Positions 28,164 to 63,504 of a stretch of 64,000 nt of DNA are shown one piece after another. How positions within the stretch are numbered: position 1 is the stretch's first letter; every line of letters begins with the position of its first letter. Made by a program: the position numbers and the translations under genes. Source of the DNA: Promethearchaeota archaeon (lineage in GTDB: Archaea > Asgardarchaeota > Lokiarchaeia > Sigyniarchaeales > SOKP01). The stretch spans positions 102,655-166,654 of the forward strand of contig JBHLPW010000001.1 of the NCBI GenBank assembly GCA_048939015.1. The letters run 5' to 3'. The notes beneath the pieces are model-generated. The model was not told where the DNA came from. It worked only from the letters and a program-made list of their open reading frames with translations, and made no database searches.

Positions 28164-28235
28164 TTAATCTCCCATTATTGTATTATTCAAAAAACCTATT
28201 CCCCTTGAGGTCGCTTTCCAACCACTTTCTAAGTA
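28164..28235 (-). pseudogene. 3'-end remnant of the wHTH gene at 33637..33969
   Basis: Translates YLESGWKATSRGIGFLNNTIMGD* versus YTESGWKATPRGIGFMSNAIMGY*; 57/67 nt identical over 28164-28230. Confidence 0.85.
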
Positions 28236-62405: not shown

Positions 62406-62469
62406 ATAAGTTTTAACAATAAGACAGTTTATTTATAGAATTCGATTAAAGTTTATAGGAAACAATCCT

Positions 62470-62513
62470 ATTGTCAACCTTTCACTAGCATTTTTTGAAA
62501 GGTATCATTCAAT
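62470..62513 (-). ncRNA. Candidate eukaryote-like SECIS element (K-turn hairpin) in the 3' UTR
   Basis: Minus strand AUUG-AAU-GA-U-ACCUUUCA-AAAAAUGCUAG-UGAAAGGU-U-GA-CAAU: AUGA/GA core, 8-bp upper stem, apical A-run, 4-bp lower stem. Confidence 0.75.
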
Positions 62514-62514
62514 T

Positions 62515-62979
62515 TCATAAGCTTTTTTTAGATTTAAAATAATGGGCAAACTTGATATTCTCTTTTCCATAAGTTCTCATAATCACTGTTTTAAATTTAC
62601 CATAATCGAGTCGTTCTTTCATAACATCAGCTCATCAATCAGCATGGACTACTATTGTTATTTCACTATCTGGATATAAATTAAAATTAATATTTTCATG
62701 TAAAGGCATAAATTCTTTATTTGGTCCGTAAGCATTTACCGCACAATCATCGTAAATTGCGTTCTCCTCAGCATCCCATATTAATTGAAGATAACTTTTA
62801 ATCAATCCTTTATAAATAGGAAAAATGGATTTTTCAGGATTTTTATAATAGATATCATCTATTTTACTCAAAGCGTCTATTATTGAGCCATTGTCAGCAA
62901 TTTTTAAGCTAAAATCAAGCCCGTTTGATAACTTATTTTCTGGATCTGGAGCAAAAATAGTTAATTTAATATTTTTGAT
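62515..62979 (-). CDS. Candidate selenoprotein: beta-grasp (MoaD/Urm1-like) domain with tandem UGA-UGA and a 38-aa extension
   Basis: GGGGTGA SD at 62988-62994, ATC start 62979, 114 aa to ...SEITIVVHAD, TGA 62637-62635, TGA 62634-62632, then ADVMKERLDYGKFKTVIMRTYGKENIKFAHYFKSKKSL, TGA 62517-62515; SECIS-like hairpin downstream. Confidence 0.65.
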
Positions 62980-63024
62980 TTTTTAAATCACCCCTATAAA
63001 ATAAAAAAATAAAAGTTATATTAG

Positions 63025-63321
63025 CTAAATAAGTCCTTTAACTCTAAGAAGTTTCGGTAATTCTTTTTTAAGTGCAAAAGTAGAGGAGAATCTTTTCTCT
63101 CCATCCACTACAACACATTTACTATGCAAATTAAGTTTTCTGGCTTCTTCTGAATTAAGATTCTTAGTATCATAATCAATATGTTTAATATAAGGAGTTA
63201 GTTCAACAAATACTCGATTCATAAATTTATCCCATTCACAAGCACACGCGTCTAATGGAACAAAAATTTCCACCTTTAATTTATCAGTTTTAGTTTCTTT
63301 ACTTACTTTTATCACATCCAA
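63025..63321 (-). CDS. Small thioredoxin-fold-like protein with CAC motif
   Basis: KVEIFVPLDACACE-helix...CVVVDGE pattern. Confidence 0.65.
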   Translation of the reverse strand: MDVIKVSKETKTDKLKVEIFVPLDACACEWDKFMNRVFVELTPYIKHIDYDTKNLNSEEARKLNLHSKCVVVDGEKRFSSTFALKKELPKLLRVKGLI

Positions 63322-63324
63322 GAT

Positions 63325-63504
63325 CTATTCATTTTGATGAAGTCCTTTACATCTATCAGAACCACAATGAATGTGTTTTGGTTGATAATTTGGGTTATCT
63401 TTATTACATGTAGATTCTGAGAGACTGCAACTCGAATGAAACATATCTGCTAAAGCTTCTTTTATTATGTTAGCGATTTGTTCATCCATTTCTATTTCAT
63501 TCAT
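63325..63504 (-). CDS. Small 59-aa Cys/His-rich protein (not in ORF track)
   Basis: MNEIEMDEQIANIIKEALADMFHSSCSLSESTCNKDNPNYQPKHIHCGSDRCKGLHQNE*; ends 3 nt before the next start. Confidence 0.7.
   Translation of the reverse strand: MNEIEMDEQIANIIKEALADMFHSSCSLSESTCNKDNPNYQPKHIHCGSDRCKGLHQNE

Follow-up and report, generated by a model that had tools for sequence, protein, structure and literature searches.

In a 64,000-nucleotide stretch of DNA from a Promethearchaeota archaeon (contig JBHLPW010000001.1 of assembly GCA_048939015.1, positions 102,655 to 166,654; hereafter the window), we identified a minus-strand gene that very probably encodes a selenoprotein of 154 residues with two adjacent selenocysteines (Sec, U), belonging to Asgard archaea of the Lokiarchaeia type. 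Its reading frame (62979-62515) started at a probable ATC codon, passed through TGA-TGA and ended at a third TGA. Namely, residues 1-114 formed a beta-grasp domain (62979-62638), a GAT codon (Asp114) was followed by the TGA pair read as Sec115-Sec116 (62637-62635 and 62634-62632), and a C-terminal extension of 38 codons (62631-62518) led to the true stop TGA at 62517-62515, all on the minus strand. A first-pass annotation made from the letters of the window had proposed a Sec-Sec selenoprotein with 38 open codons behind the TGA pair. These codons were present at 62637-62518 together with the pair, closed by the TGA at 62517-62515, and the proposal was borne out by the conservation of both TGAs, the constrained in-frame extension, a covarying hairpin and the Sec machinery of the genome. 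The whole explanation that we favored, in which this Sec-Sec protein also binds soft metals or metalloids, was held with moderate confidence.

The evidence for readthrough came largely from relatives of the gene. A six-frame search with the readthrough product gave a match in 51 of 61 related genomes; the family matches held two TGAs, and even at 20-30% identity the alignments crossed both of them and reached the end of the extension. The gene was carried by six single-contig genomes (G006, G022, G044, G045, G050, G055), some of which may come from cultures. U-U occupied a single aligned column in 57/57 fetched loci, and 31-53 further codons followed it, with TAA or TAG as the usual terminator. 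Since most homologs ended in TAA or TAG at the position of the third TGA, this TGA was taken as the real stop. In eukaryotic systems, spacing rules bar the recoding of a UGA that lies very near the selenocysteine insertion sequence (SECIS), and by these rules the TGA at 62517-62515, which abuts the element described below, would be too near for recoding. In a profile scan of the phylum, 139 of 400 genomes had the family, with two TGAs in every match listed, and all of these matches lay within one class, except one weak match. In the taxonomic family of the window itself, the gene was present in 117 of 134 genomes (about 87%).

The extension was as constrained as the domain. Among 26 orthologs, the ratio of nonsynonymous to synonymous substitution rates (dN/dS) was 0.13 for the extension and 0.125 for the domain, compared with about 1.26 in the two other frames. 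In the alignment of the extension, Tyr147 was invariant and Arg123 nearly so. Moreover, distant members had no start codon after U-U, which excluded a separate downstream gene, and TGA-TGA was kept in all 57 loci even though it followed only 8 of 413 TGA stops genome-wide. Metagenome contigs from the probable source sample were identical to the window over 62459-63100, and no variant at TGA-TGA was found in any aligned related metagenome contig. These comparisons indicate that both UGA codons belong to the coding sequence and that purifying selection maintains the extension in the same frame. The first-pass annotation had named homologs with a conserved TGA-TGA and a conserved downstream extension as support for its idea, and both were found; the coding character of the extension also favored the 154-residue product, with both UGAs read, that it had considered.

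Next to the stop codon was a hairpin with the features of a eukaryote-like type I SECIS of the kink-turn (K-turn) kind (62516-62466, minus strand). Helix 1 (AUUG/CAAU) paired 62513-62510 with 62473-62470 and was accompanied by an AAU bulge, the G.A/A.G pairs of the K-turn were formed by AUGA (62508-62505) and GA (62475-62474), and the stem was a perfect 8 bp, reaching 9 positions with a U-U. The apical loop AAAAAUGCUAG had 11 nt (62495-62485) and was A-rich, giving the core AUGA...AAAAA...GA. The element was thus as first described, with coordinates of 62513-62470 and its AUGA 123 nt past the second UGA. In an alignment of 28 hairpins, compensatory changes were seen in 7 of 13 pairs, so that the hairpin proved both conserved and covarying, as had been asked of it at the first pass. 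The 93% of alignment cells that paired, compared with 40-51% for slid partners, was a biased percentage because the hairpins had been chosen by a strict pattern demanding a stem; the compensatory changes were free of this bias.

A covariance model trained on the hairpins of the new family alone, R1, gave the window element 73.8 bits and, in about 40 loci, detected the element 8-31 nt past the stop. Among 17 distant homologs, 15 had an unrelated stem sequence with the same AUGA...AA...GA frame at or just past the stop; some of these homologs used the stop UGA as part of the AUGA. The same overlap was observed in a VhuU-like Sec peptide (G000 C95, ~28170-28215; L095:1869-1920), whose stop UGA doubled as the UGA of the AUGA core. 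When R1 was applied to three VhuD loci of the same genome, its best match was the element right behind the gene (26.8, 19.6 and 16.1 bits), and it gave only 9.6 bits on the VhuU locus. By eye, the VhuD and VhuU elements of this genome shared an 11-nt A-rich loop ending in UAG. The published consensus of the Lokiarchaeia type I SECIS has an AUGA_GA core and an AAAAA loop (PMC11227280). The window hairpin had the Asgard type I features, that is, the AUGA_GA K-turn core, an upper helix within 9-11 bp, unpaired loop A's and a location in the 3' untranslated region. Sequence comparison therefore supported its assignment as a SECIS of the same class as the VhuD and VhuU elements of the genome, and the eukaryote-like character claimed for it at the first pass agreed with this consensus.

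Rfam gave no family at gathering score across the whole window and, at E up to 10 around the hairpin, no SECIS family but just chance snoRNA and miRNA matches. This was expected because standard SECIS models also stayed blank on Loki SECIS elements (PMC4989117). R1 was too family-specific to list every SECIS of the genome, and a simple SECIS pattern finder gave 31 matches genome-wide, many of them surely due to chance at 30% G+C. A second small hairpin, AUAGGA/UCCUAU with a conserved AGGA (62455-62471, minus strand), overlapped the lower stem of the SECIS. Conservation among relatives stopped just past it, with the contigs diverging at 62452, and it may act as a terminator or extend the SECIS. 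A short hairpin, G+C-rich and of the form ACCUUGC.., also trailed the VhuD and VhuU SECIS elements (L104, L106, L095).

The genome assembly (4.86 Mb, 30% G+C) encoded machinery for Sec. A tRNA-Sec (61 bits; ARAGORN anticodon tca, i.e., UCA) adjoined a SepSecS gene (375 bits), and a SelB-like gene (236 bits) was located on the same contig. Additionally, there were two copies of SelD, each with an in-frame TGA, four VhuD-type genes with two TGAs apiece, and a weak PSTK candidate (27.6 bits). The machinery that the first-pass annotation had wished to see in the genome was accordingly present as tRNA-Sec, SepSecS, a SelB-like gene and Sec-containing SelD, with a weak match for PSTK.

Two explanations without Sec had to be weighed against these data. 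If the protein were not a selenoprotein, the TGA pair would be a tandem stop, followed by a separate small gene from ATG 62622, and the hairpin would be a K-turn RNA bound by L7Ae or acting in transcript stability. The window indeed has an ATG 4 codons past the TGAs that gives an open reading frame (ORF) of 35 codons, K-turns are common protein-binding motifs, and the lack of a SECIS match in Rfam would suit this proposal. We considered it highly improbable, since the two parts were in one frame with zero spacing in 57/57 loci down to 20% identity, distant homologs had no start for a second gene, both TGAs were invariant while the true stops varied among TAA, TAG and TGA, and the hairpin was of the same kind as those behind VhuD and VhuU; the Rfam result was foreseeable from the published failures on Loki SECIS (PMC4989117). 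The probability that TGA is read as a standard amino acid (Trp or Gly; code 4 or 25) appeared negligible. Some public gene calls of relatives print W-W, and Gly-Gly would suit a MoaD-like tail. Against this stood the dense coding of the window under table 11, with ORFs up to 1623 codons, the dedicated tRNA-Sec (UCA) next to SepSecS, and the use of TGA to end 413 of 2986 long frames genome-wide (14%, beside TAA at 72% and TAG at 14%). Codes 4 and 25 were rejected on codon usage and table-11 coding density.

The start of the gene was less conventional. A Shine-Dalgarno-like GGGGTGAT (62994-62987, minus strand), whose form RRGGTGAT was kept upstream in same-genus homologs, was separated by 7-8 nt from the probable non-canonical start ATC (62979-62977), and an in-frame TAA (62985-62983) sat between the two. 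All three features had been described at the first pass and were found within 62994-62977. The ATC aligned with the ATG start of distant homologs, and in most same-genus homologs ATT replaced it. The called 78-codon ORF begins only at TTG 62871. Since the modeled first strand (residues 2-9) requires the upstream codons, translation probably starts at ATC, or at ATT in relatives. In relatives (L012-L030), a GTG within GGTGAT was in frame and may serve as a start, and two relatives had an ATG near the AUC/AUU site. The GTG inside GGGGTGAT would be unusable in the window because the TAA at 62985-62983 comes after it.

An AlphaFold2 model built from a 36-sequence alignment was confident (predicted local distance difference test, pLDDT, 91; predicted template modeling score 0.87). 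The modeled order was strands 2-9 and 21-27, helix 33-46, strands 79-84 and 105-111, and helices 117-120, 126-137 and 145-148; U115-U116 lay in a less confident loop, and the helices of the extension had pLDDT of at least 90. The top Foldseek matches were SAMP1, Urm1 and MoaD (E about 3e-3, probability 1.0). An independent all-against-all structural aligner, VIA-align, ranked CysO first (Z 7.2), ahead of SAMP1 (Z 6.5), HVO_2177 and MoaD-related structures (Z 6.0). In it, residues 3-116 of the model paired with residues 2-90 of CysO and with residues 1-81 of E. coli MoaD. As these alignments stop at U116 and at the last Gly of the carriers, U-U takes the Gly-Gly position. Thus, the model supported a MoaD/SAMP/CysO-like beta-grasp for residues 1-114 with Sec115-Sec116 where the carriers end in Gly-Gly, in line with the fold and the alignment to MoaD drawn by eye at the first pass. 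The moderate Z values show a common fold, not a common function, and no Pfam family, including ThiS/MoaD, matched at E up to 1.

It had been suggested that U-U replaces the Gly-Gly of a sulfur-carrier or ubiquitin-like protein. The positional part of this claim held, since the alignments end at U116; the part about a working carrier did not. Instead of a Gly-Gly with a free carboxylate, there was Sec-Sec with 38 conserved residues beyond it. According to the model, the protein is not a working MoaD-type carrier, because its tail is not free but continues into the conserved helical extension. No E1-like gene was found among the conserved neighbor clusters scanned; such a partner may be encoded elsewhere.

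Each protein of the family had exactly one conserved Cys and two Sec, and this was the sole Cys in most members. Most of the family carried the motif P-D-x-G-C-U-U, while the subgroup of the window had H-A-D-U-U with Cys79 as the only Cys. The two states were complementary: all 30 C-U-U members had Val, Ile or Leu at the other site, and all 27 D-U-U members had Cys there. Because a single evolutionary switch separates the two states, their complementarity amounts to one observation. Beta-grasp topology brings the beginning of strand 3 alongside the end of strand 5, so that the relocated Cys is probably still beside the Sec pair, with Cys79 near Sec115 in space.

A profile search of 1.84 billion representative proteins returned only 91, most of which were gene calls cut at the first TGA. 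In public gene calls, a few printed W-W from code-4 calling (P0008, P0030, P0041, P0049), and most others were cut at residue 113-114. It follows that the family is mis-annotated throughout the databases. Full-length Sec-less relatives kept the Cys, with I, S or T and then T or S in place of U-U, and V-S in one. Most selenoproteins have Cys homologs, and Cys substitutions at the TGA positions had been looked to at the first pass as support. None was found among these relatives, an absence that the first pass had listed as part of a refuting result; given that the TGAs never vary, it leaves the case as strong as before. The contigs of most Sec-less relatives were short, which limited the view of their context. 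In one of them (C-V-S; L134:1274-2216), a NifU_N (IscU-like) gene followed after 5 nt, and an Arf-family GTPase gene was present on the same contig. Another had as neighbors an HMA-thioredoxin protein and a gene matching the Hydrolase family (PF00702). Both contexts are no more than hints.

The neighboring genes provided the clues to function. Directly upstream in the window was a gene for a 98-residue thioredoxin-fold CxC protein (63028-63321, minus strand) with invariant Cys26 and Cys28; its model had pLDDT 87, and all of its top Foldseek matches were thioredoxins. A PDB sequence search with the CxC profile gave nothing meaningful. Of 57 loci, 32 carried the CxC gene, and in 30 of these it immediately preceded the selenoprotein gene on the same strand. 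Upstream of it was a gene for a 59-residue Cys/His-rich protein (63328-63504, minus strand), seen in 15 loci. The Cys/His and CxC ORFs were in one frame, parted by just a TAG (63325-63327, minus strand) and one codon. In two loci (L029, L052), one ORF of 135-137 codons encoded both a Cys-rich N-terminal part and the CxC domain, and this fusion suggests that the two proteins act together. Downstream of the selenoprotein gene, the window encoded a YdjM-type membrane protein, a fusion of a winged helix-turn-helix domain with CDF, and an HD protein.

In the same taxonomic family, acr3 was directly upstream (within 1.3 kb) on the same strand in 24 of 37 loci. This Acr3 reached the TIGR00832 equivalog cut-off (288 bits), and a divergent ArsR/SmtB regulator stood alongside. 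In a second taxonomic family, arsR preceded the selenoprotein gene and acr3 was divergent; in a third group, a CDF transporter was directly upstream. In two distant lineages, at loci L088 (G057) and L091 (G038), the selenoprotein gene adjoined ferredoxin and tungsten-type aldehyde:ferredoxin oxidoreductase genes, and no pump was present. Overall, the gene context suggests arsenic or metal handling rather than the selenium-carrier or diselenide-redox roles proposed at the first pass.

As(III) binds through three chalcogen ligands, for example in ArsD and ArsR. For this reason, arsenite was the first candidate for a site in which the Cys and the two Sec residues would form a triad binding soft metals or metalloids. 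The selenoprotein may buffer the bound ion or pass it to an efflux pump, and the CxC protein and the small Cys/His protein may take part in the handover. The module would work within an ArsR-controlled acr3 operon in most relatives and behind a CDF transporter in others. We gave a metal(loid)-binding role of the selenoprotein an even chance. The more specific model, that the vicinal Sec-Sec at the Gly-Gly site forms with the Cys an Se2S site that passes arsenite or a soft metal(loid) to Acr3 or CDF, as part of a selenium-based metallochaperone system specific to Lokiarchaeia, is put forward tentatively, with a probability somewhat below even.

Several observations weighed against this interpretation of the gene. 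No acr3 was found anywhere in the genome assembly of the window, and the contig continues for only about 500 nt beyond the upstream side of the module; therefore, the arsenic link was made for this genome by orthology only. Several distant homologs had unrelated neighbors, and the functional reading as such was drawn from gene neighborhood only. The structural model was built with Cys in place of Sec, the closeness of Cys79 to Sec115 was deduced from topology, and none of the Sec-less relatives found in the 91-protein search had a Cys at either Sec position. Finally, the start codon in the window must be non-canonical (ATC/ATT), since the TAA blocks the GTG usable in relatives.

The same selenoprotein might instead be a redox enzyme. 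Its selenols would be oxidized to a vicinal diselenide, or to a selenylsulfide involving the Cys, and be regenerated by the CxC protein; a candidate reaction is arsenate reduction, in operons that have acr3 and lack arsC. The immediate partner does have a thioredoxin fold with C-x-C at the active-site position, one Cys and two Sec are conserved, and the nearly invariant Arg, 7 residues past Sec-Sec, could bind an oxyanion. Thioredoxin-coupled ArsC uses a Cys10/Cys82/Cys89 relay, which a relay of the three residues would resemble; furthermore, no arsC-type gene was found among the conserved neighbors scanned and no Grx-type ArsC in the genome. However, three LMWPc-family genes elsewhere in the genome could be ArsC, and the fold search gave no P-loop or other known arsenate-binding fold. 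The link to a CDF divalent-cation pump in other lineages fits binding better than arsenate reduction, and the Sec-less relatives keep just the Cys, so that the ancestral chemistry would need one thiol and not a redox pair. On balance, a redox enzyme seemed unlikely, although it was the main rival to binding. We regarded as very improbable a strict ubiquitin-like or sulfur/selenium carrier, in which the extension would be a propeptide cleaved after Sec-Sec and activation would be E1-like. The closeness of the beta-grasp to CysO, SAMP1 and MoaD and the location of Sec-Sec at the terminal Gly-Gly position speak for a carrier, and in the CysO and SAMP systems a JAMM protease removes the C-terminal extensions of some carriers. 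In the present family, however, the extension is as constrained as the domain and its helices are confidently modeled (pLDDT of at least 90), unlike a disposable propeptide; Gly-Gly itself is absent, a ThiS/MoaD match in Pfam was lacking even at E up to 1, and neither an E1-like nor a JAMM gene was seen among the conserved neighbors scanned.

No Pfam or NCBIfam model matched the new family. Known Asgard selenoprotein families are SelD, HdrA, VhuD/FrhD, VhuU/FrhA, Prx-like, AhpF-N and DsbA-like (PMC11227280, PMC4989117), and the new family appears in none of the lists given by PMC4989117, PMC11227280, PMC9723677 and a 2026 review (PMC13188914). The statement of the first-pass annotation that it matches no known archaeal selenoprotein family thus stood. 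The published Asgard lists, with five to seven families, were built by homology to known families or Cys homologs (PMC4989117, PMC11227280). The new family was probably missed by these surveys because no Cys-Cys form exists among the relatives found. Our literature search on adjacent Sec and tandem UGA found no earlier prokaryotic case of UGA-UGA recoding and no earlier selenoprotein family without a Cys counterpart. A second candidate for an unlisted selenoprotein was noticed outside the window (G000 C121:12653-12949; L096:1654-1950). It is an 82-residue single-pass membrane protein with an in-frame TGA in G-G-G-G-U-G-C followed by a SECIS-like hairpin (R1 29.6 bits), and this TGA was kept in 10/10 matches within the genus.

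The Sec machinery of Asgard archaea is studied as an intermediate between the archaeal and eukaryotic systems. The family extends the Asgard selenoproteome across its class, and two adjacent UGAs served by one short SECIS abutting the stop present a demanding case for Sec decoding in this group. On a ubiquitin-like scaffold, a vicinal diselenide or an Se2S site would be new chemistry, and if the ars/CDF context holds, sediment archaea would handle arsenic or metals by an unrecognized route that depends on selenium.

In comparison to the Asgard type I SECIS elements of VhuD, VhuU, HdrA and PrxL, the new element had the same core, an upper helix of ~9 bp, a loop starting with AAAAA and a location in the 3' untranslated region. 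Its placement was unusually tight, beginning at the stop codon or overlapping it; the sequences of its loop and lower stem were family-specific, and an extra small hairpin came after it. With MoaD, ThiS, CysO, SAMP and Urm1, the protein shared the fold and a reactive pair at the site of the terminal Gly-Gly. It differed from them in having no Gly-Gly, no free C-terminus, no profile match and no nearby E1-like partner; its chemistry would take place on selenol side chains, whereas that of sulfur carriers takes place on a C-terminal thiocarboxylate.

Thioredoxin reductase has the tail G-C-U-G, and mercuric reductase has a C-terminal Cys-Cys. Similar to these tails, the new family has neighboring Cys and Sec residues in a flexible loop after a Gly (G-C-U-U), a motif suited to forming an eight-membered ring on oxidation or to chelating soft metals. 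The known tails are true C-termini of large flavoenzymes, whereas the new motif, with its two Sec, lies inside the chain of a small stand-alone protein. Another parallel was with ArsD and the three-Cys As(III) sites of ArsR and ArsA, as the new family is also located in an ars operon beside an arsenite pump. Both ArsD (Cys12-Cys13-Cys18, including a vicinal pair) and the new protein have three soft ligands close in sequence. However, ArsD is thioredoxin-like and the selenoprotein a beta-grasp, two of the three ligands are Sec in the new family, and Acr3 or CDF takes the place of the pump; the conserved neighbors scanned included no ArsA. Neither the selenoprotein nor the CxC neighbor matched the ArsD profile; in outline, it is the thioredoxin-fold CxC protein that looks ArsD-like.

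SelL and the Lokiarchaeal PrxL.1 (U-x-x-U) are multi-Sec proteins with a possible diselenide (PMC4989117). In these proteins and in the new family, one SECIS serves two close UGAs and a diselenide is plausible. Theirs are thioredoxin folds with Sec two positions apart and existing Cys homologs, whereas the new family has adjacent Sec on a beta-grasp and no Cys-Cys homolog was found for it. Finally, bacterial metal-resistance selenoproteins include the double selenoprotein MbdU (C-U motif), SaoB/SaoC and Sec-containing ArsM and ArsC (review PMC13188914). The domain of life, SECIS type, fold and motif all differ from those of the new family, which had no NCBIfam match; the use of Sec as a metal(loid) ligand in a resistance operon is probably common to both.

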